A stretch of 23,411 nucleotides of DNA from contig JBHLSH010000062.1 in the NCBI GenBank assembly GCA_048881705.1, positions 1-23,411 of the forward strand, in the 5' to 3' direction. Below are positions 1 through 22,668 of the stretch, piece after piece; positions within the stretch are counted from its first letter, which is position 1, and the number at the start of each line of letters is the position of its first letter. Below the pieces are notes generated by a model. The model was given only the letters and a program-made list of their open reading frames with translations, did no database searches and was not told the DNA's origin. Position numbers and translations under genes: made by a program. The stretch comes from Candidatus Heimdallarchaeota archaeon (lineage in GTDB: Archaea > Asgardarchaeota > Heimdallarchaeia > Hodarchaeales > Hodarchaeaceae).

Positions 1-69
1 GTATAGAGCTGTTCCACTTCAGGTTGTGACAAGACGTAAAGCGCCGTGAGCCCCAAGATGGTTCCAAAG
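1..69 (-). repeat. Orphan copy 0 of the 3' end of the 193-aa zinc-ribbon membrane gene (cut by the window edge)
   Basis: Reverse complement translates FGTILGLTALYVLSQPEVEQLY versus FGTIFGIAALYLLSQPEVEQLYTQK* in 9563-10144. DNA aligns to about 9573-9641. Confidence 0.95.
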
Positions 70-297
70 CTAGTGTTGGATCCCTCCGTTAGATGACCAT
101 ACCAAAGCTTAAATACTAGAATATTCTATCAGCTGGTATTTGCTCATCCAGGGGTGAGCCATTTTGACCTTTTCCTCGAGGAAGACAAAGCTCCTAGTTT
201 TTTTATCAATCCTGGTGATCAGTTCAGTTTCCCTGGGAAATATTGCCAGTTTATCAAATAGAATAGACTGCAATCCCAACAATGGTTCGTATTTAAC

Positions 298-1071
298 ATG
301 AGTATTGAATTGGGCCTGTATTACACGTTTTTACTAATAATGGCGATGATTGCAGTAGCAGTTTTCTTTAGTCTATTCTTTATACCCGCTGGATATGGCC
401 AATTAATCAGTAAACGATGGGGAACAGTTACAATTAATAACAGGTCCGGTTGGTTAATTATGGAACTCCCTGTTGTGCTTTTTATGTCACTATTTTGGCT
501 GGTTTCGGAGCGAACCCTTGAACTAACTCCCTTCGTCTTTTTCATTTTGTTTAATATTCATTATTGTCAAAGGACGTTTATTTTTCCATTATTGATCCGA
601 GGAGAAAGTCAAATGCCTTGGTCCATTATCATTCTTGGAATGGTCTTCAATTCTGTAAACGCCTTTATGCAGGGAATTTGGATCTTCTTTTTATCTCCTC
701 CTACTCTCTATACTCCACAATGGCTCTTAACGCCTCAATTTATAATTGGTACAACAATCTTTATGATTGGTTTCTTTATCAATATCCATTCAGATCATAC
801 TATCAGAAATTTACGTGAACCTGGAGATACTACCTTCCACATTCCCAATGGAGGTCTATTTAAGTATGTTACATCTGCAAACTACTTTGGAGAGTTCACG
901 GAATGGGTTGGGTGGATGATTTTGACCTTATCATGGCCAGGGTTTGTATTTGCATTATGGACATTTGCAAATTTAGGCCCAAGAGCCCACAGCCTGAGAA
1001 ATTGGTATCGAAAAACGTTTGGTGAGGAATTTCCGATGAATCGAAAACGCATGATTCCATTCATCTATTAA
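298..1071 (+). CDS. Steroid 5-alpha-reductase (SRD5A/DET2-like, 3-oxo-5-alpha-steroid 4-dehydrogenase family) membrane reductase
   Basis: Multi-TM protein with family motifs WLIMELP, HYCQRTFIFP, HSDHTIRNLR, GGLFKYVTSANYFGEFTEW and C-terminal ANLGPRA...WY...RKRMIPFIY. Confidence 0.9.
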   Translation: MSIELGLYYTFLLIMAMIAVAVFFSLFFIPAGYGQLISKRWGTVTINNRSGWLIMELPVVLFMSLFWLVSERTLELTPFVFFILFNIHYCQRTFIFPLLIRGESQMPWSIIILGMVFNSVNAFMQGIWIFFLSPPTLYTPQWLLTPQFIIGTTIFMIGFFINIHSDHTIRNLREPGDTTFHIPNGGLFKYVTSANYFGEFTEWVGWMILTLSWPGFVFALWTFANLGPRAHSLRNWYRKTFGEEFPMNRKRMIPFIY

Positions 1072-1077
1072 ATAACC

Positions 1078-1239
1078 AACGTTAAATGACTTCGATGTGG
1101 TACTCACTCTACCATGAGAAGGAAAAAAGGAAACAAAGCCCCTTCCCCGCCTCAAAAAGAGAAAAGATGCTGGAGGTTATTTCTGGGTATAGAGCTGTTC
1201 CACTTCAGGTTGTGCCAAGACGTAAAGTGCCGCGACCCC
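1078..1239 (-). repeat. Orphan copy 1 (type A) of the gene 3' end plus ~100 bp of downstream sequence
   Basis: Contains ggaggttatttctgggtatagagctgttccacttcagg (stop codon at 1177-1179) and aaagccccttccccgcctcaaaaagagaaaagatg. Near-identical to 3137-3285 starting from AACGTT. Confidence 0.95.
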
Positions 1240-1316
1240 TAGAGAATGACTCCTTTTTCGTTCCCCAAATAGCTATTGCTTTCAACAAATAAGGTTTACT
1301 CTAGGGAAAAGCTCTC

Positions 1317-1784
1317 TTACCAATGAGAATGCTCTGGGGGTCTTAATTCTGGGAAGTTTGTGTCTCTAGCACGTATAAAGGAACGAAAATGTGAGGGTAT
1401 AACCCGAATCACAGCCCATGTCTTCCTTCTAGCCAAGAACTGTTCTTCTTCAAGCCAATAGTATTTCTTGATTCTCATTGCCTTTACTTTTTCGATGGTT
1501 TCTTCGTCCTCAATGTTTTCAGCATCTCCTCTTATCATCACATATTGGTTCTTCCAATCATCCTTATAGATATGATGAACCAAGAGAGCCACATCTGGCT
1601 TCCTTTGGATGTTCCGGATCGTCAAGATGTTGGGTCTCGTCAAAATGTATATTACTCCCTCTTCTTCATGATACATGAAGTAAAATCCAGCAATATAGGG
1701 TTTACCATTTGCCCCAACAGTAGATATGATCAGTGCGTCCTCGTCATGTAGAAATTTCTTGCTTAGTTCGTCTATTTCCACCAT
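1317..1784 (-). CDS. Pyridoxamine 5'-phosphate oxidase-like flavin-binding split-barrel protein
   Basis: LIISTVGANGKPY, IYILTRPN, RNIQRKPDVALLV and YVMIRGDAE match the PNPOx-like family pattern. Confidence 0.8.
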   Translation of the reverse strand: MVEIDELSKKFLHDEDALIISTVGANGKPYIAGFYFMYHEEEGVIYILTRPNILTIRNIQRKPDVALLVHHIYKDDWKNQYVMIRGDAENIEDEETIEKVKAMRIKKYYWLEEEQFLARRKTWAVIRVIPSHFRSFIRARDTNFPELRPPEHSHW

Positions 1785-2223
1785 TGTAGTTATTTCCTCC
1801 TTTATTTTCTTTCTTGTATTTTTGCAATCATCGATAGTTAATAGTTTTCCAATTTCATTTATGGATTCTTTTAGTAAATCTACTCAAGCAAAAACCCAGA
1901 ACGGAGTAGATCTAGGAAGATCAACATTATCCAAAACTGAACGGGATCCGAATATGGAAACCTAATTAGATTGAATTATGATAGGTTATTGAATTGATCA
2001 ATGCTCGAGATGTAGTTTAAAATTTGCTCTCACAGATAAAAAAATTGGTAAAAAAGTGATATTCTAACCTCTCAAGCAAAAACAAATATATATTACAGAT
2101 ATTATATCATTTTCTTATCTGTTCATTACTTTAAATTGGAAAGGTTATGATTACATTTAGAAATGCATAAAATAAACCCGATTGGGCATAATCTAAAAAT
2201 TCAAAGTCCTAGGAGTCGATTTC

Positions 2224-2895
2224 ATGTTTAAAAATACTCGAATCCCGTACTTATATCGTTTATTTTTATTGTTAGCTTCACTTACCACGTTTACTGTTCT
2301 AGAATTACTTGTTTTTATCGAATTTCAGAATGAATTTACGGATATTATTCAAAGATATCGTACTTGGTCGTATCAATCAAATTTACTTGTTTTAATTTGG
2401 CTCGCACTTGCTATTTACTATAATACGAATGAAAATAAAAAGGATATTTTATTCGGACCATTGAAAGGTGCTATTACTTCATATATCACCGTTACGGTTG
2501 TCCTTTGGCATTTTGTTATTTCTCCGACTGCACCTCCCGCAGAAGGAATTGTAATACTTACAAATATTATGATTCATTATTTCCTGCCAATTGCTTTTAT
2601 TGTTGATTTTCTTCTATTTGACGTTCCCTCCTATGAATGGAAATCTATTCCGTCTTGGTTTATCTTTCCTTTGGTATGGACTGGTTTTGTCATGTTGACA
2701 GGTCTTACGGGATTCTTTAGAAACTATTTGGGATTACCGAATTATGTTTATCCATTCCTTAGTATTAATCGATATGGTGTAATCTCAGTAGGAACTTTCC
2801 TGTTATTCATATATATCGGTCTTTTATTGATAGCAGTAGCTTATGTTGGAATTTCTAAGATAAAAAATCGTTCCAAAGTTCTGCAAGCAAATTAA
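2224..2895 (+). CDS. Pr6Pr-like (FAR-17a/AIG1-related) integral membrane protein
   Basis: About 6 TM segments with YQSNLLV, GAITSYITVT, HYFLPIAFIVDFLLF, FPLVW and YVYPFL motifs. Confidence 0.7.
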   Translation: MFKNTRIPYLYRLFLLLASLTTFTVLELLVFIEFQNEFTDIIQRYRTWSYQSNLLVLIWLALAIYYNTNENKKDILFGPLKGAITSYITVTVVLWHFVISPTAPPAEGIVILTNIMIHYFLPIAFIVDFLLFDVPSYEWKSIPSWFIFPLVWTGFVMLTGLTGFFRNYLGLPNYVYPFLSINRYGVISVGTFLLFIYIGLLLIAVAYVGISKIKNRSKVLQAN

Positions 2896-3136
2896 ATATT
2901 CAAGGATCATGGAATCAAAAGATTGTAGAGATTAATAAAGGAGAAAAAACGAGGAGCTGTAATTGGGGAAAATCGGAAAAAGATATCATTTCTTCAAAAA
3001 AGGCACCTGATGGCTTGCAAAGCTGAGTCAATCCAGGCAAAAATACTCTCTCCTCCCCCCGTCAGGATTTGCATTGCGATTAATCAGGGATATTTCACAT
3101 CGTAGTTACGGTTGTACTACATTTAACGTAATATCA

Positions 3137-3285
3137 AACGTTAAACGACTTCGATGTGGTATTCACTCTATCATAAATAGAAAAAAGGAAACAAAGCTCC
3201 CTCCCCGCCTCAAAAAGAGAAAAGATGCTGGAGGTTATTTCTGGGTATAGAGCTGTTCCACTTCAGGCTGTGACAAGATGTAGAG
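3137..3285 (-). repeat. Orphan copy 2 (type A)
   Basis: Reverse complement encodes LYILSQPEVEQLYTQK* (stop codon at 3235-3237). The downstream tract matches copy 1 up to AACGTT at 3137-3142. Confidence 0.95.
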
Positions 3286-3358
3286 GTCTATGGGAGATTA
3301 TCCGTGTGAAATACAACCTTTTTATATTCTGTGTTTGTATATGCATATGTGATTCAGA

Positions 3359-3586
3359 ATGGGTAGTAAAACCATTAGCTTGGATGAAGAAGCCTATAAG
3401 AGACTAAAACGAGAAAAAAACGCTAATGAATCTTTTTCTGATGTGGTAAAGCGACTAACCCGTCCTGTCCAGCATAAATCACTGTTAGCTTTTGCAGGGA
3501 TCTGGGATTTTTCGCCACAAGAGGAAAAAACCCTTAAAACTGTTCTTAAAGAGCTAGGAGTCCAAATCAATGCTTTGTTTGGATAG
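3359..3586 (+). CDS. vapB: Archaeal VapB-type antitoxin
   Basis: MGSKTISLDEEAYKRLKREK..ESFSDVVKRL is the typical archaeal VapB N-terminus. Overlaps the downstream PIN gene. Confidence 0.85.
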   Translation: MGSKTISLDEEAYKRLKREKNANESFSDVVKRLTRPVQHKSLLAFAGIWDFSPQEEKTLKTVLKELGVQINALFG

Positions 3587-3968
3587 CGATTTTATGATTG
3601 CTCTCCTTCGGGGCGATAAGGAAGCTATCACCAAAGCTGAACAACTAGAGGAAGAGTCCCGGGAAATTGTTTCAACTGCCATTAATGCGTTAGAACTATT
3701 TGTGGGAATTGTCGCTGTTGATGGAATATCAGGAACACGAGTCAAGAAAACTCGTGACTTTCTCAATAATCTAACAATACTACACTTAGATGCGAGCTCT
3801 GCTGAACGCTCAGCTTACATCCTTAATTCCTTAGAAAAACTTGGAAAATCCATTGGCTTAAAAGATTCTCTAATCGCTGGCATCGTATTAGAACATAAAG
3901 CTGACATCTTGACTCGTAATACTAAGTATTTTGAGAGGGTGTCTGGATTAAAAGTTGAGCAATGGTAG
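3570..3968 (+). CDS. vapC: PIN-domain toxin VapC
   Basis: CLDSDFMIALLRG, STAINALEL, DSLIAGIVLE and ILTRNTKYFERV provide the PIN acidic residues. 132 aa, paired with the antitoxin. Confidence 0.9.
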   Translation: MLCLDSDFMIALLRGDKEAITKAEQLEEESREIVSTAINALELFVGIVAVDGISGTRVKKTRDFLNNLTILHLDASSAERSAYILNSLEKLGKSIGLKDSLIAGIVLEHKADILTRNTKYFERVSGLKVEQW

Positions 3969-3990
3969 GTATGGTTCAACTTCATCTTTA

Positions 3991-4071
3991 GGAAAAATAG
4001 GGCGGAGTCTGGGTGTTACTTCGCGTAGAGCTGTTCGACTTCAGGTTGAGACAAGACACAGAACGCCGCGA
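3991..4071 (-). repeat. Orphan copy 3 (type B variant)
   Basis: Reverse complement encodes AAFCVLSQPEVEQLYAK* (stop codon at 4016-4018). Post-stop ggagtctgggtg is shared with copy 5. Confidence 0.9.
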
Positions 4072-4092
4072 AGTTGGTTTCTCTTTGCTGAA

Positions 4093-5571
4093 TTACAAGG
4101 ATTTTAGAACTTGGTCAAGTACATCATCAAAATTACTGTAATCCCATTCAACATACTTATCTGGTTGCACACGAACTTCTTCATTAGCACTACCTGAATA
4201 GTCAATTCCCATTGCTGGTGTAAAGCGAATTACTAGTTTAGAATTAGGTAGGACATAAAAAATGGGTGAATCACTTATTCCGTCTCCACCTGTTGGTGTT
4301 CCATAGATTTTAGCAAATTTCGTTTCTTTACAGAACAGGGCAAAGGCATCTGTTGCCGAAAAGGTGATTCCATCCACAAGTAAAATTATTTTTCCAGAAA
4401 AATCAATTTCTTGGGAAGGGTCTACCGTTTGAGTGTATTTATATACCGTAAAATCTTGTTCTGTTATTTCTGTGGGGAGATTGTCAAATTGTTCTTTAGA
4501 AACAATAGAATTGATGTTCGATTGTGATAGTTTTCTAAATAGATTAACATACTTACCGGAACGATATGCGAGATACATCTTGCTAACCATTTTTTCTCTT
4601 CCAAGTGGAGAAATAACATTCTTCATCCAACAATTGAAACTCCCACCTTCATTCCTTCTCACATCTATAATTATACAATCATATTTTTCTACATGGTTAT
4701 AAAATTCCATTAATTGAGCGTGATCTTCATCAATATGCTCATCCATGAAATCTTTTATTCTAATGTAACCAATTCTTTTTTCAGGCAAAATTTCCGTTTT
4801 AAAACGGGTTTCTATCATTTTATATGGATTATCATATGTATATTCATATCCTGAATCGAATATTACTCTTTTCTCCTCTCCAGTAGATTTCTTGATAGTG
4901 AAATTAGCTTTTTGGCCAAAATGTATTGGTGTAATTCTCCAGAGAAAAATTTTTTTTCTATTAAAGTCCCAATCAAGAAGGCCTGTCTCGTAACACTCTG
5001 AAACAGCTTCATCAATTGGTTTACCATTAACAGCAGTTACACTGGTAGTTCCTTCACCATAAGTTTCCTTCCAAGAACCATATCCATCAAAAATCTTATA
5101 TTCACCTCTATCATAGAAAATTAGAACTTCAAAATTCATTCCATACCGTTTCTTAATTATTTGATCTAATGCTGATCTCCAATAGTTCATTGCTTCTTGA
5201 ACTTCAGGAATAAAAATAGCATTGAATGGAGGAGTTTTTTGAGCCCAATGATCTTGTTTGAAGAAGGAATCAAACATACTTGGACGAACAATCACTGTAT
5301 GGGCATTTTGTAACGCAGTAACAGCATCCCAAAATGTTTCTAGAATATGATATATGTTTTTTGCATTTTTTATTCGTGCAAAGTATTTTTTTTTAAAATC
5401 TAACCAGTTATACCCCGTAAATCTTTCTTTTAACCATAAATAACAAAAATTTTCCTTTATCATTTTATAGAAATGATTGAAATCGTCAATCCAATTATCT
5501 ATCGTCATATCCTTTGGATGAATTGGTTTAATTACAATTTCTGGATATTTCTGCATCGTTACATGCCCCAT
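4093..5571 (-). CDS. S41-family (tail-specific/C-terminal processing type) peptidase
   Basis: IGYIRIKDF, IIIDVRRNEGG, ILLVDGITFSATDAF (catalytic Ser) and YGTPTGG motifs. Confidence 0.88.
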   Translation of the reverse strand: MGHVTMQKYPEIVIKPIHPKDMTIDNWIDDFNHFYKMIKENFCYLWLKERFTGYNWLDFKKKYFARIKNAKNIYHILETFWDAVTALQNAHTVIVRPSMFDSFFKQDHWAQKTPPFNAIFIPEVQEAMNYWRSALDQIIKKRYGMNFEVLIFYDRGEYKIFDGYGSWKETYGEGTTSVTAVNGKPIDEAVSECYETGLLDWDFNRKKIFLWRITPIHFGQKANFTIKKSTGEEKRVIFDSGYEYTYDNPYKMIETRFKTEILPEKRIGYIRIKDFMDEHIDEDHAQLMEFYNHVEKYDCIIIDVRRNEGGSFNCWMKNVISPLGREKMVSKMYLAYRSGKYVNLFRKLSQSNINSIVSKEQFDNLPTEITEQDFTVYKYTQTVDPSQEIDFSGKIILLVDGITFSATDAFALFCKETKFAKIYGTPTGGDGISDSPIFYVLPNSKLVIRFTPAMGIDYSGSANEEVRVQPDKYVEWDYSNFDDVLDQVLKSL

Positions 5572-5788
5572 CCTAGTTTTAGAGGAATTAAATTGTCCTT
5601 ACATACGTTGTCCAAAACCTAACTTTTTACTTTATAGAGAGATAGAAAATTGAGTCCTATTTGAAATGAATGGAGGTTAGCTTCTCACCTGATTTCTCAG
5701 GTATATACCCCAGTATATAATTTTCTTGATCTAACCTTGGTTAAATGATATCATATATAGGATTATGTATAGCTTCCTTGAGGTATCC

Positions 5789-5973
5789 AACGTTATACGA
5801 CACCTCAGTACCATATCAGTAAAGAATAGGCAAAAAAGAAAAGACTCCTTCCCCACCTCAAAAAGAGAAAAGATGTTGGAGGTTATTTCCAGGTATAGAG
5901 TGGGTCTACTCCAGGTTGTGATAAGACGTAAAAGGGTAGGATTCCAAAGGGAATATTGAACAGATTGAAGGGG
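5789..5973 (-). repeat. Orphan copy 4 (type A, diverged, with internal deletion)
   Basis: Reverse complement encodes FNLFNIPFG-ILPFYVLSQPGVDPLYTWK* (stop codon at 5883-5885). Downstream ctccttccccacctcaaaaagagaaaagatgttggagg is present, with AACGTTATACGAC at the left edge. Confidence 0.9.
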
Positions 5974-6016
5974 TAGTATTTTTAACACCTACGGGTACTA
6001 ATTCTATTGATCCTTT

Positions 6017-6262
6017 ATGCCCACAATGAGTACGAAAATCCCTGAAAACCTGAAAAAACGGATTGAAAAACTTTCCCACATAAATTGGAGTGAAATCATG
6101 AGAACCGCACTTCTTGAACGAGTCGAGGAGGAAGAAAAAAGAATTATGGATCGCGATACCAAATTAATTGATCAAACCATTCAAAAAATGGATCGATTGC
6201 GGAGAAAAGCAAGGGGAAATACCACAGAGGAGTTGAGAGCATGGCGCGAGATCAGACATTAG
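6017..6262 (+). CDS. Putative ribbon-helix-helix/CopG-type antitoxin
   Basis: 81 aa, MSTKIPENLKKRIEKL..INWSEIMRTALLERV pattern. Overlaps the downstream PIN gene. Confidence 0.75.
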   Translation: MPTMSTKIPENLKKRIEKLSHINWSEIMRTALLERVEEEEKRIMDRDTKLIDQTIQKMDRLRRKARGNTTEELRAWREIRH

Positions 6263-6663
6263 TTATCGACGCATCTGTTGCCCTAAAATGGTTTGTTGAC
6301 GAAATTCATACAGAGAAAGCACTCAAACTCAGAGAATTTCTTAGAAAGGACGCGACCCCTGTTGTTCCCGCCCTATTTTTTTATGAAATTGCTAACGTCC
6401 TTCGTTATAAACCAGAATTCGGTAGTAATGACGTGATGAACATAATTAAAACCCTTTTAAACTTTCAATTTAAAATTGAACTCCTTGATGAGAAATTAAC
6501 AGACCTTACAGCTAAATTAGCCTATCAATTTGGAATAACAATCTATGATGCGAGCTACATTGCCATTGGCCAGTTATATCAAGTCCATTTCATTACCGCA
6601 GACGAGAAATTGGTTTCCCAAATTCAAAACGAACAAGTAATTCTCCTTGAAAATTGGAAATAA
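6241..6663 (+). CDS. vapC: PIN-domain toxin (VapC-like)
   Basis: VIDASVALKWF, FFYEIANVL, TIYDASYIAIG and FITADEKL motifs. Confidence 0.9.
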   Translation: MARDQTLVIDASVALKWFVDEIHTEKALKLREFLRKDATPVVPALFFYEIANVLRYKPEFGSNDVMNIIKTLLNFQFKIELLDEKLTDLTAKLAYQFGITIYDASYIAIGQLYQVHFITADEKLVSQIQNEQVILLENWK

Positions 6664-6810
6664 TTAAGTGTCCACTTCATGTGAACCCAGTTTCCTGACA
6701 GATCTTGAGAGTGACTCTGTGATATATATCTAATAGACGGAAACAACCAATTCCGAGTTCATTCTTTTTCATGACCTGCTCAACAAGCCTCTCCGCGCAT
6801 CCCAAGAAGA

Positions 6811-6939
6811 AAGAGAAAAAGGAAAAAGCTCCATCCCCCGCGAAAAAAGGTTGGAGTCTGGGTGTTACGTCGTGTAGAGGTGTTCGACTTTAGGTTGTGA
6901 CAAGATGTAAGACGTTGTGATCCCAAAGAAGGTTTCAAA
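6811..6939 (-). repeat. Orphan copy 5 (type B variant)
   Basis: Reverse complement encodes FETFFGITTSYILSQPKVEHLYTT* (stop codon at 6865-6867). Retains the aaagctccatcccccg motif at 6825-6840. Confidence 0.9.
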
Positions 6940-6943
6940 ATTC

Positions 6944-7924
6944 TTAGAAATCTTGTAGATTGAACGCGATATCTCCACTCGTAGATGTCACCGTGAAATC
7001 ATATTTCGTCTCAGAAAGATCGTAACTTGATGAAGTATATGTTGTTAGATTATTAGGTAGCTGGATTAATCCCGATTCAGTGATTGCTGCAATATTTATT
7101 CCAAAAACTGGATTCAGATATAAATCAACATATACCATTTGTGCATAGCTGTTTATATTAAACTGCAGAGTACTAGGATTATTATTCAAGTTTTCCCATT
7201 GCACTAGATCTATTGTCGTTCGGAAGGAACGCCAGTCAGGTCGCAGCTGGATTTCCCATATTGTTAGATTTGAAGTATACCTATTCTCAAATAATTCGAA
7301 TCGTACCGCCGTCAAATCCGAATGAAGGACGAGTGTATCGGATACGTTGAACGTAACGTTAGTAAAGGATGCGGTATGCCCTGTCTCACTCCATCCATAA
7401 TTCAAATTCAGATGAGATATGGTTAAATCCTGTAACTTAACATTATAACCTTCAACGCAACCATCCAATATATCTAACGAGAAACTAATGTTTTCTTGAA
7501 TATAAAATCGTACATCGTTCCACCCAGGCGCTGGATCCACAGCTGCAAAACCCGAATCGTCAAATACCACCGCTATAGTCTCATTATCAACTTCAGAATA
7601 CAATAAAATTTCAGAGTACAGGAAGGCTTTGACGTGTGAAAGATTGGCCCCTTGCCTCCGAAAAGCGTCGACCTCGATCGATAGTACGTAATTAGCATCC
7701 TTTGGGGCCATAGATATGCTCGCATTTCCATAACTATGATCAATAGATAGTTTCACATTAGAATAGTTAGCAGGAATCGTATCTGTAACTGTAGCAAGGA
7801 ATGTTATTGGCCTTGTCCCTATAGATAAAATTAGATACATAAACAGGATATTCGTACCAATTAAAATTGAAACGACCACTGCCAATAAGATAAAGAATGT
7901 TAGTATTTCCCTTTTTGAGATCAA
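6944..7924 (-). CDS. Membrane-anchored beta-strand-rich surface protein (possibly DUF4097/adhesin-like)
   Basis: N-terminal TM helix, many N-x-S/T sequons, beta-rich body ending in TVTSTSGDI. Family assignment is tentative. Confidence 0.6.
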   Translation of the reverse strand: MISKREILTFFILLAVVVSILIGTNILFMYLILSIGTRPITFLATVTDTIPANYSNVKLSIDHSYGNASISMAPKDANYVLSIEVDAFRRQGANLSHVKAFLYSEILLYSEVDNETIAVVFDDSGFAAVDPAPGWNDVRFYIQENISFSLDILDGCVEGYNVKLQDLTISHLNLNYGWSETGHTASFTNVTFNVSDTLVLHSDLTAVRFELFENRYTSNLTIWEIQLRPDWRSFRTTIDLVQWENLNNNPSTLQFNINSYAQMVYVDLYLNPVFGINIAAITESGLIQLPNNLTTYTSSSYDLSETKYDFTVTSTSGDIAFNLQDF

Positions 7925-7938
7925 TATCCTACTCTCTT

Positions 7939-9267
7939 TTAGGATTTATTTCGTCTTTTTCTTTCGATTAAGCAGACGATTAATGCAACAAAACCAATTA
8001 GGCCTGAATACAACGTTATATTTGACGTAATTGGGGTGTCCATCACGTCTGTTCCTACAGACGACATGTCTGAAGAACTAGTACCAAAAGAACCAGTCGT
8101 TACTAACAGCATATCTGAAGAGCCAGAACCAAAAGAATACGTACTTCCTGCGAGGATGTAATCTTCGTCACCTGTTTGAATCACCTTGGAAGCAGCATCA
8201 TAGCCGAATCCCCCAAACGTCTGGTTCCATTCCGTGCTACCATTTTCATCAATTTTTACCAACCACATATCACCTTGCCCCATACCAAATGACCAGGTTC
8301 GTCCTGCTAGCGCATATCCTTGATCATGGGTCTTGATCATTGAATAACCATTATCCTTCGCTTCTCCCCCATAAGTTTGGTTCCATTGTACCAGGCCTTT
8401 TTCATCGATTCTTATCATCCATAGGTCTGCTGAACCAAGCCCAAATGAGTACGTACTCCCAGCAAGCGTATATCCGCCATCATGAGTTTGTACAACAGCT
8501 ACTGCTTCTTCGGGCCCTATTCCTCCATACGTATGGCTCCACTCAATGCCTCCTGTTTCATTGGTTTTTACTAGCCACATATCACTCTGCCCTGCCCCGA
8601 CTGACATAGTTTTTCCAACGAGTGCATACCCTCCGTCTTTCGTTGATACGAGAGAATAACCGTGGTCTAACATAGTCCCCCCAAAGGTCTGATTCCATTC
8701 CACGATTCCCGTTTCATCGGTCTTTATTAGCCACATATCATCATCCCCTTCGCCGTACGATCCGGTATATCCTACCAATGCAAAACCCCCATCTGGTGCC
8801 TGAACCACTGAGCGAGCAATATCCAATTTTGGACCTCCATATGTATGGTCCCATACGATCTCGCCGTTATCATTAACTCGTACCAACCACCCATCTGCAT
8901 TTCCCTCTATACCTGACTCTGTATATCCCGCCAAAACATATCCCCCATCAGCCATTTGGATGACGCTAGAACCTACCTCGTTATATTTTCCGCCGTAGGT
9001 GTGGTTCCATTCCGCGGTTCCATTCTCATCGGTTTTTACTAGCCAAAGATCCATCTTTCCTTCCCCGAAGGATTCAGTTGAACCAACAAGTAGATACCCC
9101 CCGTCCAAGGTCTGGATAACTGAATATGCGTAATCGAATGTAGTTCCGCCATAGGTCCGATTACTCCATTCACTTCCCGTCCTCAAGGATGAAAGCTTAT
9201 CCGCCTGAGGATCATATCTGGAAATAGTTTGTAATTGGATGTTTTGAAGACTGAGAATGAGTAACAA
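7939..9267 (-). CDS. Secreted seven-repeat beta-propeller surface protein with C-terminal TM anchor
   Basis: Seven ~52-aa repeats WN.TYGG...SV.QT.DGGY.LAG.T.S.G.G..D.WL.K.D..G, a Ser/Thr linker, a TM helix and the basic tail RKRRNKS. No in-frame ATG before an upstream stop, so the start is uncertain. Confidence 0.85.
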   Translation of the reverse strand: MLLILSLQNIQLQTISRYDPQADKLSSLRTGSEWSNRTYGGTTFDYAYSVIQTLDGGYLLVGSTESFGEGKMDLWLVKTDENGTAEWNHTYGGKYNEVGSSVIQMADGGYVLAGYTESGIEGNADGWLVRVNDNGEIVWDHTYGGPKLDIARSVVQAPDGGFALVGYTGSYGEGDDDMWLIKTDETGIVEWNQTFGGTMLDHGYSLVSTKDGGYALVGKTMSVGAGQSDMWLVKTNETGGIEWSHTYGGIGPEEAVAVVQTHDGGYTLAGSTYSFGLGSADLWMIRIDEKGLVQWNQTYGGEAKDNGYSMIKTHDQGYALAGRTWSFGMGQGDMWLVKIDENGSTEWNQTFGGFGYDAASKVIQTGDEDYILAGSTYSFGSGSSDMLLVTTGSFGTSSSDMSSVGTDVMDTPITSNITLYSGLIGFVALIVCLIERKRRNKS

Positions 9268-9510
9268 CGATAATATGAGGAATAATCTCAGCGTTGACCC
9301 CTCTTTACAGAAATCCGACCCACATTATACTTGAGTCTTGCTTATAACTGCTATGGCTTTGAGCTGATCTGCTTTTTCCTTGCTTTTAGATGGTTCTCGA
9401 TACATGCAGCTAAGTAATTTTCATTATCCTCAAGTGTATGACTGATATATCCTGAATCTTCTAAGACAAAACCTACGAATTGCTTCTTTCAATTCAGAAT
9501 ATCTTCAAGA

Positions 9511-9641
9511 AAAAAGTGATAAAGCTCCTTCCCCGTCTTAAAAAGAGAAAAGATGTTGGAGGTTATTTCTGGGTATAGAGCTGTTCCACTTCAGGCTGTG
9601 ACAAGAGGTAGAGCGCCGCAATCCCAAAGATGGTTCCAAAG
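9511..9641 (-). repeat. Native copy of the repeated unit (3' end and downstream tract of the intact gene)
   Basis: aaagctccttccccg...aaaagagaaaagatgttggaggttatttctgggtatagagctgttccacttcagg overlaps the stop of 9563-10144. Confidence 0.95.
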
Positions 9642-10144
9642 GGTAAGTTGATCAAATTCAGGGCTCCAATTACCATAGTTCCAATTCGCCCCGAATTCTC
9701 ATATTTCATGAGGCGCTTCCCACTGATAATACTGGCGAAGGCATATACCAAACACACCAAGGCTACTCCAAAGAGTATCACCGCGAGGAACGGAGCTATC
9801 TTCATCAGAATTACCTGCGTTTCCGGCTCCTCAATGAGCCCAGACCGCAGGAGCACATTAAATAACGGTGCCAATGCCAATAGCGCCATCCCAATCAAAA
9901 GCGCGAATACCCCAAAAACGATCTCAACGACCCCAAGAATTTGTATGTATCCTCTGTAGGTCTCTTGACGCGAGGGTTTCGGAACGTAAACATTCCCTGG
10001 CTTCCGTACCGCTAATTCCGTCCCACAGGCCTGACAAAAGAAATCCTCAGCGCCTACACTCGATCCACACTTCGTACAATATTTCGAAGCGGCTTGAAAC
10101 TCAATTTTTTTCTCGGTTGCTTTTGTACTATACATCCTCTTCAC
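9563..10144 (-). CDS. Zinc-ribbon membrane protein; anchor gene of the cassette array
   Basis: CTKCG...FCQACG double CxxC followed by 3-4 TM helices and the conserved tail NLPFGTIFGIAALYLLSQPEVEQLYTQK. Confidence 0.85.
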   Translation of the reverse strand: MKRMYSTKATEKKIEFQAASKYCTKCGSSVGAEDFFCQACGTELAVRKPGNVYVPKPSRQETYRGYIQILGVVEIVFGVFALLIGMALLALAPLFNVLLRSGLIEEPETQVILMKIAPFLAVILFGVALVCLVYAFASIISGKRLMKYENSGRIGTMVIGALNLINLPFGTIFGIAALYLLSQPEVEQLYTQK

Positions 10145-10150
10145 TTACTC

Positions 10151-10765
10151 TCATCGAATATTTCGGGTGTCATTCTTGTGGCGAGAACCAAACACAACAA
10201 CTAATCCTGGAATAATGAAACAGCACATTACAATTACCATCAGGATAATTTTCCATGGAAACGCTGAAAAGCTCCAATTTCCAAAGTTACTACCGAATTC
10301 TGACCCCATGTGACCCATCTCGCCACCAAAGCGTCCAAAGAATTCGCCCAGGCCTCTGCCAAGTTCACCAAACACTGTTCCCATGTGCCCTCCAAATTCT
10401 CCGAAGCCTCCAAAGAAAGCAGGGGCAAATATCGCTAGTAACGCCATTATCGCGATCATAAAGAATACAAATCCGACCAACGACCCAACAAACGAACCCG
10501 AATGGCACGACTCCCGTGTCCGATATACACGGTACGGCCGTACCCGACGAACTTCATGTGCTGGTACAAACTCTACCCGTTGAGCGACCGGCTCTTTCTG
10601 GGGTCCTGGCATCCGTATTGGCGCCTCCTCGTCTTCACTTGGGGTTCCCCAGGTCTGAACAGGCTTAACTTCGTTTTCTATGGGCCGTAACCTCTGGCCA
10701 CAATTCGGGCAGAATAATGAATCATCTTCGTTTTGGGCTCCACACTGCGTACAATATCTCATCAT
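10151..10765 (-). CDS. Zinc-ribbon membrane protein with Gly/Phe-rich loop
   Basis: YCTQCGAQN.....FCPNCG, two TM helices around FGGFGEFGG...FGRFGG. Stop lies 6 bp before the start of the next gene. Confidence 0.85.
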   Translation of the reverse strand: MMRYCTQCGAQNEDDSLFCPNCGQRLRPIENEVKPVQTWGTPSEDEEAPIRMPGPQKEPVAQRVEFVPAHEVRRVRPYRVYRTRESCHSGSFVGSLVGFVFFMIAIMALLAIFAPAFFGGFGEFGGHMGTVFGELGRGLGEFFGRFGGEMGHMGSEFGSNFGNWSFSAFPWKIILMVIVMCCFIIPGLVVVFGSRHKNDTRNIR

Positions 10766-10790
10766 TTTTCCACCTTTCGCCTTATTCGCA

Positions 10791-11036
10791 TCAATTTCGT
10801 CCCGCTACTCTGTAGTAGTGACGTCTCATATCATACATGTCTGGCACACGTACAATCAGATCCGCATTCAATAACTGTCGGAGGGCCTGACGCACCGTCC
10901 GCGAGGAATATCGCGTCCGCGCCTCTATGTCTCCAACATACATTTTCTCCGTAGTTTCCAACGTAGCAAACACTCTTTGGACACTCGGTGACATTACTCC
11001 CACCAACCGCTTTCCAAATCGAATACTACTTGACAT
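10791..11036 (-). CDS. Small archaeal winged-HTH (MarR/ArsR-like) regulator
   Basis: SPSVQRVFATL...YSSRTVRQALRQL...IVRVPDMYDMRRHYY resembles stand-alone archaeal wHTH proteins. First gene of a three-gene operon. Confidence 0.75.
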   Translation of the reverse strand: MSSSIRFGKRLVGVMSPSVQRVFATLETTEKMYVGDIEARTRYSSRTVRQALRQLLNADLIVRVPDMYDMRRHYYRVAGRN

Positions 11037-11152: not shown

Positions 11153-11442
11153 CTAACCTTCAAAAATGGAGGAGATTGATTTATTTTGGTTTTATTACCC
11201 TCTGTGTCCAATCGATGGTGCACCACATCTATTGGGAACTCATTAGTTTTAAGTAGGGAAGCTTGACCGTTGATAACCAGTTGTTCACCATTTCTGAAGG
11301 CTTCAGGAGGGAGGAATATCATTTGGATACTCCTCGCTAGGTACCTGGAAATCTCACGTATTTGTTCACAAAAAGGGGGAGCAGAATCTCTCGATAAGGA
11401 ACTCAAATGAACTGGATGACAATTCGGAAATTGAAATCGTGA

Positions 11443-11670
11443 TCTTTGGTAGCTTATTAGGTTTGGTCGTCCATCTGCAGTGATGAGTGAACCCAAGTCT
11501 ACTCCTGTGCAATTTCCGCTGGCCATTTTCAAAGCAGTGGAACACATGCTTCGGGGGATGAACTACGATCAGCAGTACGAGGTGGATAAAGCCAAAAGAC
11601 ATTATCACACCACGTCAAAGATCTTATTAGACGTCATAAAATGTGTTTCGAAGTACCGTATTGGAAGCTT
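11443..11670 (+). pseudogene. Truncated, frameshifted duplicate of the 5' UTR and MIT-like region of the Vps4-like gene (direct repeat of about 15604-15832)
   Basis: Shared tctttggtagcttattagg leader and 55 collinear codons from ATG 11483. A 1-bp deletion follows, then EVPYWKL versus DVPYEKL in the shifted frame. Confidence 0.93.
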
Positions 11671-15505: not shown

Positions 15506-15643
15506 ATTAGAGGAGAATTACCTACACTCACGTTCTACCTCCTCCAGTGGAATAAGGTTCTTTTCTCCGAAAACTTTTCTTTGACTCAGAATTTGTAAAT
15601 TATTCTTTGGTAGCTTATTAGGTTGGCTTGCCCACATTCAGTG

Positions 15644-16975
15644 ATGAGTGAACCCAAGTCTGCTCCTGTGCAATTTCCCGTGGCTATCTTCAAGGCAGTG
15701 GAGCACATGCTGCGGGGGATGAACTACGATCAGCAGCACGAGGTGGATAAAGCCAAACGGCACTATCGTGCCACTTCAAAGATCCTATTAGACGTCATAA
15801 ACCGTGTTTCCGATGTGCCTTATGAAAAGCTGTGGTTAACCCAAGCACAGATCTGTAACAATCGAGTCAAACAATTAATGTTCGGAGATAGAAACAAGTC
15901 TGCACAAGCTATGTCTCGGAGGCCATCTTCGAATAATCTAGCCACGAAGGCAGAGTCAAAGCACCAAAGGGGCCCTCAATCACAGGATGAAGACAAAGAA
16001 TTAGAGGAACGAATTGACGCGTGTCTGCTGAGTCCACGCGCCAAGTTAACATGGGATGATCTCATTGGACTAGACAAAATAGTGGAATTAGTCAAGGAGG
16101 TCGTTGTCTTGCCATTAAAGCATCCTAAGGTGCTCCAGAAACGGCCAGGAGCCCTCCGGACAGTGCTGACGTTTGGGCCACCTGGGTGTGGGAAAACACT
16201 GCTTGTTATGATCTTGACGGCACAAGTGAACATTAACGTCTATGCCGTATCCGCGGCGAGTCTGCTTTCGAAATGGTTCGGAGAGAGTCAGAAGATGATA
16301 AAGAAACTTTACACGACTGCTTGGAAGAATGCGCCTTCGATTGTCTTCATAGATGAGTTTGATGGGATGTTCGGGACAACGGGAGGCAATAGCGAGATGT
16401 CAAGTACGGTGGTTCAGATTCAAAAGGAATTATTGCAGTATATGGATGGTGCCTATACCCCAGAAATCAATCAGACCGTAACAATTGCAGCAACTAATAA
16501 TCCATGGGCATTGGATTCGGCCCAAGTGCGACGATTTGAACGGGTCTTGTATGTACCGCCTCCAAATCTGGAAGCAATCCAACATCTCTTAGCATGGGGG
16601 TTCCTAGAAGTTCCGAATAGCCTTAGGTCGCATGATCGCTATCAGCTCGGACTTCTGCTCAGAGGGTATACGCCCAGTGAAATAATCAATATCTGCAAGA
16701 CGGCCAAGGTACGGGCCTTCAAAGCAGGAATCCAGAACAATAAAATGCAATCCGTAAGTCGAGAGGATGTGTTGGCCAGTCTGGAGACGTTACAACCCAT
16801 GTTGAAACAACGAGGAAAAGCGGGAGTAGGAACCATTGAGTTTCGGAAGTGGAATCGCAAATGGGGGCGACCGCCCATTGAGTATCCAGTGGAACCATGG
16901 GAAGAACCTGCCTACCATCCTTCACAGGATCCCGATTTACAAAAGGAAAACTTGGTGAAATACTCCAAGTGGTGA
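15644..16975 (+). CDS. vps4: Vps4/CdvC-like AAA+ ATPase with N-terminal MIT-like domain
   Basis: Helical N-domain, LTWDDLIGL, Walker A GPPGCGKT, pore loop SKWFGES, Walker B IVFIDE, ATNNPW, RRFE Arg finger and a terminal FRKWNRKWG helix. Orthology to true Vps4 is unproven. Confidence 0.8.
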   Translation: MSEPKSAPVQFPVAIFKAVEHMLRGMNYDQQHEVDKAKRHYRATSKILLDVINRVSDVPYEKLWLTQAQICNNRVKQLMFGDRNKSAQAMSRRPSSNNLATKAESKHQRGPQSQDEDKELEERIDACLLSPRAKLTWDDLIGLDKIVELVKEVVVLPLKHPKVLQKRPGALRTVLTFGPPGCGKTLLVMILTAQVNINVYAVSAASLLSKWFGESQKMIKKLYTTAWKNAPSIVFIDEFDGMFGTTGGNSEMSSTVVQIQKELLQYMDGAYTPEINQTVTIAATNNPWALDSAQVRRFERVLYVPPPNLEAIQHLLAWGFLEVPNSLRSHDRYQLGLLLRGYTPSEIINICKTAKVRAFKAGIQNNKMQSVSREDVLASLETLQPMLKQRGKAGVGTIEFRKWNRKWGRPPIEYPVEPWEEPAYHPSQDPDLQKENLVKYSKW

Positions 16976-20000: not shown

Positions 20001-20915
20001 TATTGGTTCCAAGAATTGGCAAACTTGCAGGATCCAAAAAACCTAGAAATTTATCAAAAACAAATATTGGTTTATCCTTTATCGAATGAAAGGAAAGAAC
20101 TAGAAATAAGGATTGGGAGTTCCAAGTTTCGTTCGGAGAATTTATACGAATTATTTGATGAGGCGCTCGCAGGTGAGTATGAGTGGACTAATATTGAAAT
20201 TCCTCGGGATATAAAGCTCAGGATAGATTTCTTTAATTTTTCCTCTGGTGCGAGAATTGCAGGCCATACAAAGGTAACGGTTGATTCACGAGTTCTTGCT
20301 TCATTAATCCCAAAACCAACTGAAAAGCAAATTGAAAGAATGGTATTGCATAAGGGAGTCATGGATTGCATAATTACCTCGATCAATAGAGATGTAGAGA
20401 ATAGTTTTCAGTATGTATCAAGTCAGGTAAGATTTCCAGACATTGCAAAATTACCGAAAAATGAGGATTTGGATATAGACAAATTTGGTGAACCAGATTC
20501 TGCAAATTTCAGGAAACCAGATATAATTACGATAAACATACGAGAGGACGATGGAAAAACGAAGATAGTAATTTCCATCATTGATGTGAAAAGAGCACGG
20601 TCAGAATTCGGACATAGTATAGTTAAAAACTCCAAATATTCTGAAAGAGGACGAGGATGGGGACAACCCTTGCGCGATTCACTTGGAGTAATACATAAAA
20701 TCAAGTCCATCTTCCCAGAGGTTCCTGATGATGATATTGAAGTTTCCTGCATGGTACTAACGGCAAAATCAGAACAAGATGCCCATACTTTGATGGTAGA
20801 AGGGGATATACTATTTTCCCAACAACCCGTATCAAGGATATTTCCATATATTGGTCGAGTGTGTGACTCAAATGACCAGGTCTTCCGACTAATCCGTCGA
20901 ATAAGAAAAGAGTAA
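17055..20915 (+). CDS. Large acidic multidomain protein with two internal repeats and a C-terminal PD-(D/E)XK-like nuclease domain
   Basis: Glu/Asp-rich N-terminal ~530 aa, repeats 205 codons apart, C-terminal KPDII...IIDVK motif. Start at 17055 or 17040. Confidence 0.8.
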   Translation: MAETEKQREADTTEKDTTSTNGTDESGEGELPEEETPSIIPEEEEKYEAAVTADEIEFQSTETVELDSSLLNDNDHDSTLGGNHVTLDSEAMDEVESSSPESLGRDLDLTSTGRDVSSTPMTDSDLRELTTEPLILDERESLLEDETDKNELSQKVEKLTVEITEIDKIEVYRDILAIEYLDLEEVAEGKKSLSDIPEEKYSNQPSTTLLEPPSEVPVEAKEVSADSQEMVTIQFLGPPLEGEVKAEREQWNELERQELDIIEHTPDVTEPIYEHTVDQELSDLELARLQQALEKQGQEWKKSQEEIEAQQGGKEEEAEKQENIDFLNSSQLRENGEVALFHEVQVGNESFELGQAAISPQHLLESSQWKGDITQKQVEDLSFQFTEKDLLMTEMASDISLYAQNVNPSEEITSENINGDLLEQVTLTTQDVEARSLDEDTEYRLIDHENLFGELEEPIQGTSQSLEQHLFEETLPKVQFFDSTTDLGSESYEEDLELVTQAPQLPEPPSYDFLGELEEQEEFDRELRHKYRGSLRSHLIHSLGGARFRKQTALTYGRGESEDDSSRPLHAQKMETSELRSGQEEKDKESDLKQEFKFNSMETRLDGQVLSREESDKQATLLYNDLIDVPHNLRVWSHLAHHEEYLRFAGAGVLFDALPPTQEERLIIFETLFNGLWEKAKEKLISYVRVRNLPVDPQIFDIIFTSLTENMLWNVIDPEWTQAFFISRSAWNQQDREEHLNLSGKTVISFSSSDHSMSTLIGAKTHSASFQLLEPKINPSQFRNVSNWIIGFENYIKGMQPDRGLKQVPIPVSQRFPRSKSSQAGVAPNPTHWSYAEKGLWRHLASHLPILERRRTYVYLNRIMKTKQQEETLISAIIDQSWSSAKGLIHQFAKAAHVNIDKEIIGYIVDELSSHIKIRFDESSEGIYTITSQTTGGSKLETKVIFKLDQQLQQVLPRIHTKSSLIPVQEPVLQEWALGNIDYWFQELANLQDPKNLEIYQKQILVYPLSNERKELEIRIGSSKFRSENLYELFDEALAGEYEWTNIEIPRDIKLRIDFFNFSSGARIAGHTKVTVDSRVLASLIPKPTEKQIERMVLHKGVMDCIITSINRDVENSFQYVSSQVRFPDIAKLPKNEDLDIDKFGEPDSANFRKPDIITINIREDDGKTKIVISIIDVKRARSEFGHSIVKNSKYSERGRGWGQPLRDSLGVIHKIKSIFPEVPDDDIEVSCMVLTAKSEQDAHTLMVEGDILFSQQPVSRIFPYIGRVCDSNDQVFRLIRRIRKE

Positions 20916-20936
20916 AAACCAAATTTCCTCCGTTGA

Positions 20937-21626
20937 TTATTCATCCCAAAAACCTGGCGCAAAATAAAGAGAACAAGGATTTGAATCTTCTATTTCATTG
21001 TAGAGTTCGGGAGGAGGGAAAATGCTCCCCTGAGAATAAAAATATAACACAAATCCGTTCAGAAGTGTATGTTCAGTATTCTTTTGCAACAGGTCACTAA
21101 GTTTAATCCAAAAGTCATCAGGTGGTATCCCCCAGTACTGTATAAAGGGATTGAAAATCAAAGGCTCAAACACGAAGAACAAGAAACTATTGTCGAGTAA
21201 TGCGTTTCCTGGTAATCTGGGAAAGCCAAACCCTACCCAAGATATTTGTAAGACAAGCCAAACATATCGTAATTCGACCTCATCTTCAGAAGAAAGGTAC
21301 GATGTGGATGCTTTAAAATAGTCTGGACATAGAACTGGATTACACAAAAAACCAGGGGAACGGGTTACGGTGAAGTCAAATTCCTCTTTAGTCAATTTAT
21401 ATTTGACATCTGGGTGTATGAAAACGCGTTCCCTGCCATCACGTGGGACATTGATCTTGTAATCAAGCCATTCTTGGGGGGTATAAGTCAGCCATTTCTT
21501 GTCTCGGTCTGTCGGACGAAATTCGACGTGATCGGTTTGGTACTCAACCATATGTTGCGGGGGCCAGTCAGGAAACCGTTTCAGACACAGTTGGGAGAGT
21601 TTGTCATCAAATGGCACAATCATCAC
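20937..21626 (-). CDS. Hypothetical protein, candidate immunity/partner protein 1
   Basis: 229-aa ORF convergent on the nuclease gene, collinear paralog of 22669-23367, with its own TATA-like element (about 21668-21679). Function is inferred. Confidence 0.8.
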   Translation of the reverse strand: MMIVPFDDKLSQLCLKRFPDWPPQHMVEYQTDHVEFRPTDRDKKWLTYTPQEWLDYKINVPRDGRERVFIHPDVKYKLTKEEFDFTVTRSPGFLCNPVLCPDYFKASTSYLSSEDEVELRYVWLVLQISWVGFGFPRLPGNALLDNSFLFFVFEPLIFNPFIQYWGIPPDDFWIKLSDLLQKNTEHTLLNGFVLYFYSQGSIFPPPELYNEIEDSNPCSLYFAPGFWDE

Positions 21627-22652: not shown

Positions 22653-22668
22653 CCGAAACATCGATATA

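Follow-up and report, generated by a model that had tools for sequence, protein, structure and literature searches.

Orphan copies of a gene 3' end separate tandem gene cassettes in a Hodarchaeales archaeon

The window analysed here is contig C62 (JBHLSH010000062.1; 23,411 nt in full) of a metagenome-assembled genome (MAG) of Candidatus Heimdallarchaeota, GCA_048881705.1, designated G000, which comprises 3.96 Mb on 155 contigs at 91% completeness and 7.5% contamination. It contains a gene for a 193-aa protein, hereafter the anchor gene, and downstream of this gene a tandem array of small gene cassettes separated by orphan copies of the anchor gene's 3' end. The anchor protein combines an N-terminal zinc ribbon with about three to four hydrophobic helices, as in a small membrane protein, and ends in ...ALYLLSQPEVEQLYTQK*; its Pfam support consists of zinc-ribbon matches alone, which are weak.

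The tail copies were located by direct-repeat search of the window, alignments, and tblastn with the 193-aa protein. Six orphans and the intact gene's tail form a direct-repeat family of seven members in one orientation, and further, longer repeat families extend over the stop codon and the downstream tract. Six co-oriented orphan copies had already been noticed when the DNA was inspected without database searches (the sequence-only reading), and both the repeat search and tblastn confirm them. The orphans correspond to residues 163-193 of the anchor protein, with coding fragments of 16 to 31 codons by tblastn, and they split positions 1-9562 into six cassettes (M1 to M6, Table 1). In the anchor itself, the repeated tail consists of the last ~26 codons including a conserved core, the stop codon (9563-9565), and a tract of ~55 nt with a G-rich box and T-runs. 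Across the whole 3.96-Mb assembly the repeat was found only on C62 and a second contig, C99, with E-values from 1e-5 to 1e-36. Such confinement at low E-values argues against chance similarity and, together with the common orientation of all copies in G000, led us to reject a miniature inverted-repeat transposable element or another dispersed repeat.

Beyond the core, two kinds of sequence were distinguished. Type B post-cores (LYAK*, LYTT*) keep both the reading frame and the position of the stop, as would be expected if every cassette had once completed the anchor gene, and type A post-cores run into an extended tract. Terminator-like hairpins with T-runs occur in the tracts on the anchor strand, and the extended tracts of c2, c3, and c5 end in half of a second site, attT, that is described below; the half-site of c5 is an exact match. 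The tract of c2 adjoins the stop of the M1 reductase gene. Copy c1 is severed by the contig start exactly where its core ends, and probably continues as the end of C99. Junctions between cargo and copies are as tight as previously described: the reductase stop (1071) lies 6 bp before the copy starting at 1078, the stop of the 326-aa gene (6944) lies 4 bp from its copy, and that of the S41 peptidase gene (4093) about 21 bp from its copy.

The cassettes measure 1.0, 1.9, 0.7, 1.7, 0.84, and 2.56 kb (M1 to M6), in agreement with the earlier description of modules of 0.7-2.6 kb that each hold one or two complete genes between orphan copies. Their layout is compact: the genes are complete, junctions measure 4-220 nt, and the cargo lies on both strands, with 50-220 nt ahead of gene starts. 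Families were assigned by Pfam and NCBIfam profile scans of all cargo proteins, which detected no integration or transfer genes and no family match for the 442-aa and 326-aa proteins of M6. The cargo is accessory, includes two VapBC pairs, and is rare in the genus, for which we compared 22 genomes placed together by GTDB and publicly labelled as Hodarchaeota or under other Asgard names. Among these, the M1 reductase was found in G000 and G001 only, and a homolog of the S41 peptidase only in G008, at 40% identity and a different locus; homologs of the 442-aa protein adjoin tail copies in G012 and G019. The 442-aa gene contains internal repeats at 7939-9267 with a period of 156/312 nt (family D3). 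Neither the window nor the related loci contain tRNA or transfer-messenger RNA (tmRNA) genes, and there were no Rfam matches in the window.

Table 1. Features of the cassette array and its surroundings. Positions refer to the window unless preceded by the number of another locus (L).
Feature	Position	Strand	Evidence
Direct-repeat family, seven members in one orientation	1-69, 1187-1255, 3245-3313, 4023-4091, 5893-5961, 6872-6940, 9573-9641		window repeat search
Orphan copy c1: fragment from ~residue 166, core	1-77	-	repeats, tblastn, alignment
M1 cargo: 3-oxo-5-alpha-steroid 4-dehydrogenase-family reductase (298-1071)	78-1072	+	profile match
Orphan copy c2: 20-codon fragment, core 1187-1221, type A extended tract	1073-1243	-	repeats, alignments, tblastn
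attT-like half-site at tract end of c2	1073-1086
M2 cargo: PNPOx-like flavoprotein (1317-1784, -); 223-aa Pr6Pr-family membrane protein (2224-2895, +)	1244-3131	both	profile matches
Orphan copy c3: 16-codon fragment, core 3245-3279, type A extended tract	3132-3285	-	repeats, alignment, tblastn
attT-like half-site at tract end of c3	3132-3145
M3 cargo: VapB (3359-3586), PIN-domain VapC (3570-3968)	3286-3990	+	profile matches
Orphan copy c4: fragment from ~residue 176, core 4023-4057, short type B post-core LYAK*	3991-4071	-	repeats, alignment, tblastn
M4 cargo: S41 peptidase, 492 aa (4093-5571)	4072-5783	-	profile match
Orphan copy c5: fragment from ~residue 163, decayed core 5893-5927, type A extended tract	5784-5966	-	repeats, alignment, tblastn
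Exact attT half-site TATAACGTTGGATA at tract end of c5	5784-5797
Terminator-like hairpin of c5	5858-5828
M5 cargo: VapB-like antitoxin (6017-6262), PIN-domain VapC (6241-6663)	5967-6810	+	profile matches
Orphan copy c6: fragment from ~residue 165, core 6872-6906, type B post-core LYTT*, in-frame stop, tract	6811-6951	-	repeats, alignment, tblastn
M6 cargo: 442-aa protein; 326-aa protein (6944-7924)	6952-9509	-	open reading frames
Anchor's own tail, the repeated segment (core 9573-9607)	9510-9641	-	repeat families D1/D2, alignments A1, A2
Anchor gene, 193-aa protein	9563-10144	-	open reading frame and translation
Genes upstream of anchor: 204-aa zinc-ribbon membrane protein (10151-10765); 81-aa winged-helix regulator (10791-11036)	10151-11036	-	profile scans, G003/G008 synteny
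attT sites	L040:14455-14535; L041:9561-9613; L114:7736-7791; L063:10867-10924; L052:8842-8887 and 11375-11438

The array runs off the left edge of the window, as the sequence-only reading had stated. C99, a contig of 10,495 nt, ends in the very 23-mer that opens the window and carries a further tail copy (7554-7604), an old yellow enzyme (OYE) flavoreductase gene, and a gene for a 469-aa protein. Together with the seven copies in the window (six orphans and the anchor), two copies on C99 make up a co-oriented set. In G001, a sister species about 94% identical to G000, C99-like DNA (ArsP, TPR, and a 163-aa gene) and C62-like DNA (PNPOx, 223-aa, and reductase genes) are found on one contig. It is thus very likely that C99 joins C62, and the array would then span about 12.6 kb with no fewer than eight orphan copies.

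Comparison with G001 revealed that neither the content nor the order of the cargo is fixed. The G001 array comprises six tail copies, two tract remnants, and about seven modules on contig C31, which is 90-97% identical to G000 across shared blocks, and shares with G000 only the reductase, PNPOx, and 223-aa genes; between the latter two it has an additional short tail copy. In G001 the reductase cassette adjoins the anchor end of the contig and has another cassette on its far side, whereas in G000 it is placed between M2 and the C99 cargo, with five cassettes separating it from the anchor. The order of M1 and M2 is reversed between the two genomes. Between species sharing about 94-97% identity, cassette content changes fast. 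Co-oriented clusters of tail copies were also detected in G010, G012, G017, and G019, G019:C98 being the one place among the relatives where copies depart from this clustered, co-oriented pattern.

Four cassettes were found with the same ends next to differing neighbours, in G000, G001, G012, and a metagenome contig, and in all four the switch between neighbours falls inside CCTGAAGT/N/GAACAGCTCTA. In G000 as in G001, the reductase is accompanied by the type A extended tract (about 95% identical, against ~90% identity to c3; alignment A2), and the reductase's own fragment is identical in both genomes up to CCTGAAGT and divergent thereafter (alignment A4). Likewise, G000 and G001 agree in the fragment on the PNPOx side of M2 but not in what comes after it, a post-core of type A in the former and of type B in the latter (A2). 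The S41 fragment and its 3' flank recur at the end of contig G012:C75 with 1 mismatch in 82 nt and another post-core, and the M3 VapBC cassette is present on metagenome contig L112, 81% identical, with its own short tail fragment and again another post-core. Going by the linkage in these four cassettes, a unit would span the post-core codons, stop, and tract, then the cargo, then the fragment up to the core, with the crossover inside the coding core; by the same linkage model, the post-core part of the anchor's own tail would belong to cassette M6. This lends substance to the idea, put forward in the sequence-only reading, of a gene-capture site for units made of an anchor fragment and cargo. 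The core is the best conserved stretch of the tail among 22 copies from nine species: its two-fold degenerate third positions in GAA, GAA, and CAG are kept at >=90%, against 40-50% for four-fold and third positions in the flanks. All duplicated segments are short (48-240 nt).

The type A extended tracts stop sharply at (G/A)TGTCG-TATAACGTTGGATA. In relatives, attT is a composite of ~65 nt in which two such motifs surround ATACGTAT-ATTG-ATACGTAT, so the end of a tract equals half of the composite. The composite is present in 11 of the 22 genomes, has palindromic parts, and folds better than shuffled sequence (z = -2.44). On contig G008:C56 it forms 56-nt direct repeats around a 19-kb element whose genes include a 289-aa tyrosine integrase and VapBC and which also bears a tail copy. 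In the closed genome G010, attT sites enclose one NosD-like gene next to the gene of a 290-aa integrase, a layout resembling that of integrons, and also bracket a whole 15-kb tail-copy array with no intact anchor nearby. Since it flanks both integrase-bearing elements and an array, we judge attT to be a real recombination site of an integrase family, one able to carry cassettes or whole arrays. G000 has attT half-sites only and no attT-type integrase. In the G000/G001 comparison, neighbour switches map to the coding core and not to attT; a crossover at the attT half-site ("Model T") would need at least two extra events to produce the observed linkage and was ruled out.

The anchor gene had been labelled a core gene, a description that does not hold for this genus: a full-length syntenic ortholog with winged helix-turn-helix and zinc-ribbon neighbours occurs in merely three of the 22 genomes (G000, G003, and G008). 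G001 probably has an ortholog too, judged from sequencing run X4, in which a G001-like genome repeats the G001 junctions and holds an intact anchor gene at 94% identity. Homologs that are 37-48% identical were found in another neighbourhood in fifteen further genomes. Orphan copies are more widespread than the gene and occur in 9-10 of the 22 genomes. The 204-aa zinc-ribbon protein and the 81-aa winged-helix regulator encoded upstream travel with the anchor, with synteny kept in G003 and G008, and neither is a recombinase. Switching between alternative C-termini of the anchor protein was considered and ruled out, because the exchanged part amounts to only about six near-identical codons.

Other direct repeats of gene ends are present in G000. 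In the window, a Vps4-like AAA ATPase gene has its leader and first ~70 codons repeated directly over 228 nt (11443-11669 and 15604-15831, 86% identity), and the two copies flank 3.9 kb of cargo, namely genes for an HTH_10 regulator, an EamA transporter, an alpha/beta hydrolase, and a flavodoxin, without an integrase; the tail core and the attT motif are both missing from the repeat ends. An SMC_N-like 444-aa gene has its last ~18 codons duplicated 5.5 kb downstream (G000:C23:147-207 and 5764-5825; L128), with DUF5615, NosD/beta-helix, and TPR genes in between. In an Arf-like 244-aa gene it is the last ~40 codons that recur, 4.4 kb downstream (G000:C56:20268-20386 and 24766-24884; L129), with TPR and ParA-like genes in between. 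Neither of these two insertions contains an integrase gene. Distal to the array, C99 (L019) has nested direct repeats (1052-1239/4827-5014 and 1236-1315/7338-7417), one of them the 3' end of the 163-aa gene, which bracket SnoaL, MFS, and HTH genes that are absent there in G001. Near the right end of the window, the end of a 1291-aa gene and its convergent 229-aa neighbour (20646-21626) are repeated at ~71% identity as a 269-aa plus 232-aa module (22383-23367; D4, D6) whose layout resembles an orphan module of polymorphic toxins. Elsewhere in the genome, the short contigs C133 and C141 show an IS607-like layout, with a resolvase-type serine recombinase gene followed by an open reading frame of 499 and 898 aa, respectively. 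The sole 23S rRNA gene found (G000:C9:70390-72465) runs into a contig end and stops at position 2078 of the 2987-position model.

We tentatively favour the reading that the anchor's 3' end serves as an attachment (att) site, a landing pad at which integrase-less cassettes resembling cis-mobilizable elements (CIMEs), moved by a recombinase acting in trans, accumulate in tandem; we regard this as quite possible, if somewhat short of probable. Followed along the anchor strand, a cassette would start with a replacement tail end made up of the last ~6 codons, a stop in frame, and a tract resembling a terminator, which some cassettes close with an attT half-site. Next would come the cargo, one or two complete genes, and then an anchor-tail fragment of 16-33 codons ending at the core, about CTTGTCACARCCTGAAGT-N-GAACAGCTCTA. 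Given this anatomy, a circularised cassette would carry one complete tail copy, comparable to attP. A crossover in the core, whether against the intact gene or against any of the orphans, would integrate the cassette, leaving the anchor gene whole and pushing older cassettes outward, and recombination between two cores would excise it. We infer that a tyrosine recombinase provided in trans carries out conservative site-specific recombination, with circular cassettes as intermediates; candidate enzymes would be the single XerC/D-like enzyme of the host or the ~290-aa integrases of attT-flanked elements in relatives (for example G008:C56:201270-202139). A site-specific process is favoured because the switch window is fixed, the core is conserved at the nucleotide level, blocks of identity are short, and cassettes are reused with identical ends.

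Several observations weigh against a landing pad of this kind. Profile scans found no recombinase gene on C62 or on C99, its very likely leftward extension, where the sequence-only reading had suggested looking for one. By profiles PF00589, PF00239, and PF16795, the 91%-complete assembly of G000 has one tyrosine recombinase, encoded by a conserved XerC/D-like gene on C16 (37593-38849), plus two serine recombinases of the IS607 type. Across the 22 genomes, PF00589 matches revealed no integrase linked to the tail att site, and no element pairing the two was found in these genomes, IMG/VR, or JGI contigs, a negative result limited by the fact that MAGs rarely include extrachromosomal elements. 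The core had no match in IMG/VR; a scan of JGI metagenomes returned 26 matches, of which five were true copies, all on short linear contigs without the terminal overlap that would mark a circle. An integrase gene 4.4 kb downstream of a 45% homolog on G012:C27 was dismissed, as no tail repeat is visible before the contig ends. The dyad in the core (CTTGTC ... GAACAG, by eye) is weak and falls short of a clear recombinase site; the linkage is imperfect, position N of one G001 type B copy being occupied by the type A base; and conservation of the core could also reflect gene conversion against a gene under selection. Finally, the duplication of several unrelated gene ends around cargo in G000 would call for several absent integrases or for a mechanism independent of sequence.

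An alternative is that the same cassettes are moved by ordinary RadA-dependent homologous recombination, without a dedicated enzyme. Circles bearing a piece of tail and cargo, derived from a donor genome or from recombination between two direct copies, would insert by a single Campbell-type crossover, and direct repeats would delete and re-insert cassettes. The duplicated Vps4-like 5' end, SMC_N-like tail, Arf-like tail, and C99 repeats would find a place here, as would the absence of an integrase near any array in a genome with one tyrosine recombinase. The coding-side boundary of the copies is ragged, from 16 to about 80 codons, as random circle closure predicts; type A and type B tracts resemble real gene tails of different donor lineages; and copies that share only the coding part must cross over there, so clustering in the core, the longest identical stretch, is expected. 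However, homologous recombination favours long homology, whereas all duplicated segments measure 48-240 nt, which suits an att site better, and copies that are just 60-90% identical are poor substrates. Synonymous-site conservation of the core in orphans would seem to call for a sequence-specific requirement or frequent gene conversion, and the sharp tract boundary at the attT half-site indicates at least one site-specific step. On balance we consider the RadA explanation somewhat less likely, though a serious contender. A different history, which we deem improbable, is that full integrase-bearing elements integrated serially at the anchor tail and then lost all but one or two genes, such that the cassettes are not mobile units today. 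Tandem integration followed by decay is documented for tycheposon islands (10.1101/2020.12.28.424599) and in the formation of CIMEs (PMC5704250), and relatives do hold several ~290-aa integrases as well as the 19-kb element of G008:C56 with its tail copy and VapBC. Yet the array contains no integrase fragments or pseudogene debris, its cassettes are compact with complete genes and short junctions, elements decaying independently would not arrive at the same small cassettes with the same ends in different neighbourhoods, and deletion alone cannot produce the reversal of M1 and M2.

A metagenome assembler misled by the repeats might also have threaded unrelated pieces, or strains, into an apparent array. 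This explanation gains from the contamination of the MAG, from unitig breaks at c2, c3, and the anchor, and from the position of the window start and the C99 end inside a copy. It was checked with Logan contigs and unitigs (k = 31) from four sequencing runs. In two runs a single unitig spans 3249-9586, so that copies c4 to c6 and their cargo are contiguous, i.e., three copies with four cassettes; the unitigs break only at c2, c3, and the anchor, three near-identical copies at which k = 31 unitigs must break. A loose end at window position 40 represents the C99 copy overlaid on c1, and stretches of the window that runs X3 and X4 leave uncovered carry no weight. Moreover, the exact repeats are <60 nt and hence below read length, the comparable G001 array lies on a single contig with junctions that recur in the X4 unitigs, and arrays are also present in the closed single-contig genome G010. 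We therefore consider an assembly artefact or strain chimera highly improbable.

Acquired genes abound in the large genomes of Asgard archaea, but little is known of how they enter. The locus described here is a concrete, recurrent entry point with unit limits defined to about 20 nt, fast cassette turnover between near-identical species, and no integrase in sight. Capture driven by a host enzyme or by homology alone would amount to a new principle; if an unseen integrase family is responsible, the site offers a bait for finding it. It is tempting to speculate, although we find it doubtful, that capture without a dedicated integrase extends throughout the Hodarchaeales, with cassettes that carry conserved gene ends, the membrane-protein tail at this locus and other protein-gene ends elsewhere in G000, docking via the host XerC/D-like enzyme or RadA. 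If so, the archaea nearest to eukaryotes would possess a gene-transfer route that is general and has so far gone undescribed. In practice, such repeats break assemblies and spread accessory genes across short contigs in Asgard MAGs.

Among known systems, integrons were compared. Their attC sites are imperfect inverted repeats that form hairpins as single strands, IntI is encoded beside attI and the first cassette, and the cassettes are for the most part single promoterless ORFs in one orientation. Archaeal integrons and clusters of attC sites lacking integron integrases (CALINs), including those of Asgard MAGs, have true attC sites (PMC9668308). The array shares with them tandem small cassettes with one recombination site each, toxin-antitoxin cassettes, rapid turnover, and possibly a recombinase acting in trans. 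Here, however, the sites are gene-tail copies and not attC hairpins, there is no IntI and no attI, and the cassettes lie in both orientations with room for their own promoters. A CALIN does not need IntI but needs attC. Single-strand folds of five tail copies were no better than shuffled sequence (z from -0.37 to +1.17), and with no attC-like fold, no IntI on C62 or C99, and cargo on both strands, we dropped the integron-like label given in the sequence-only reading and rejected membership in this class.

The pdif modules of Acinetobacter plasmids and integrative mobile elements exploiting Xer (IMEX) are units of one to three genes, often toxin-antitoxin pairs, that are moved by a housekeeping tyrosine recombinase. 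Their resemblance to the array lies in small modules without their own recombinase, and the only tyrosine recombinase of G000 is XerC/D-like. Xer-type modules have at each junction a 28-bp site whose 6-bp spacer separates 11-bp inverted arms; by eye, the tail core shows a weak dyad and no clear 11-6-11 pattern, and the attT composite has palindromic parts, yet linkage places the crossovers elsewhere. An orphan-toxin array of the contact-dependent inhibition (CDI) or Rhs type, in which a conserved pre-toxin segment precedes alternative C-terminal toxin domains accompanied by immunity genes, was rejected, as the orphans repeat the extreme C-terminus, stop, and terminator tract and the cargo consists of unrelated enzymes and VapBC.

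That the locus matches no named system, as the sequence-only reading had it, is too strong a statement, since tycheposon islands (10.1101/2020.12.28.424599) and CIME accretion (PMC5704250) are close analogues. Tycheposons of Prochlorococcus target tRNA or tmRNA genes and, when complete, carry a tyrosine recombinase and a replication module; their remnants include integrase fragments. In their islands, too, repeated integration at one site pushes older elements outward and scatters partial copies of the target gene, the cargo is adaptive and accessory, and integrase-free remnants occur. The present target, however, is a protein gene without integrase or remnant, and membership was rejected because there is no tRNA or tmRNA gene in the window or related loci and no recombinase on C62 or C99. 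The accretion of CIMEs is exemplified in Streptococcus thermophilus by ICESt1/ICESt3 and CIMEs at fda, a site-specific process at the 3' end of a protein gene. As in CIMEs, the units here are bounded by direct repeats with the 3' end of the target gene, the intact gene stands at one end, the units have no integration genes, new arrivals would enter at an att site that holds the gene end, and units accumulate in tandem. Remnants of decayed integrative and conjugative or mobilizable elements (ICEs, IMEs) are not present in the units, and a cognate integrase element with the same att specificity was not found in the 22 genomes, IMG/VR, or JGI contigs, the attT-flanked integrase elements using a site other than the tail core. 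The array further differs from CIMEs in its at least eight units of 0.7-2.6 kb with one or two intact genes each, in identity blocks of 16-80 codons, and in its Asgard host. Such arrays go unmentioned in papers on Asgard mobile elements (PMC8813620, PMC11529989), and the literature searched yielded no description of gene-tail cassette arrays. What sets the locus apart from its named relatives is therefore the absence of a cognate integrase from the data searched, the cassette size of its units and their number, the protein gene that anchors them, and the archaeal host in which they are found.

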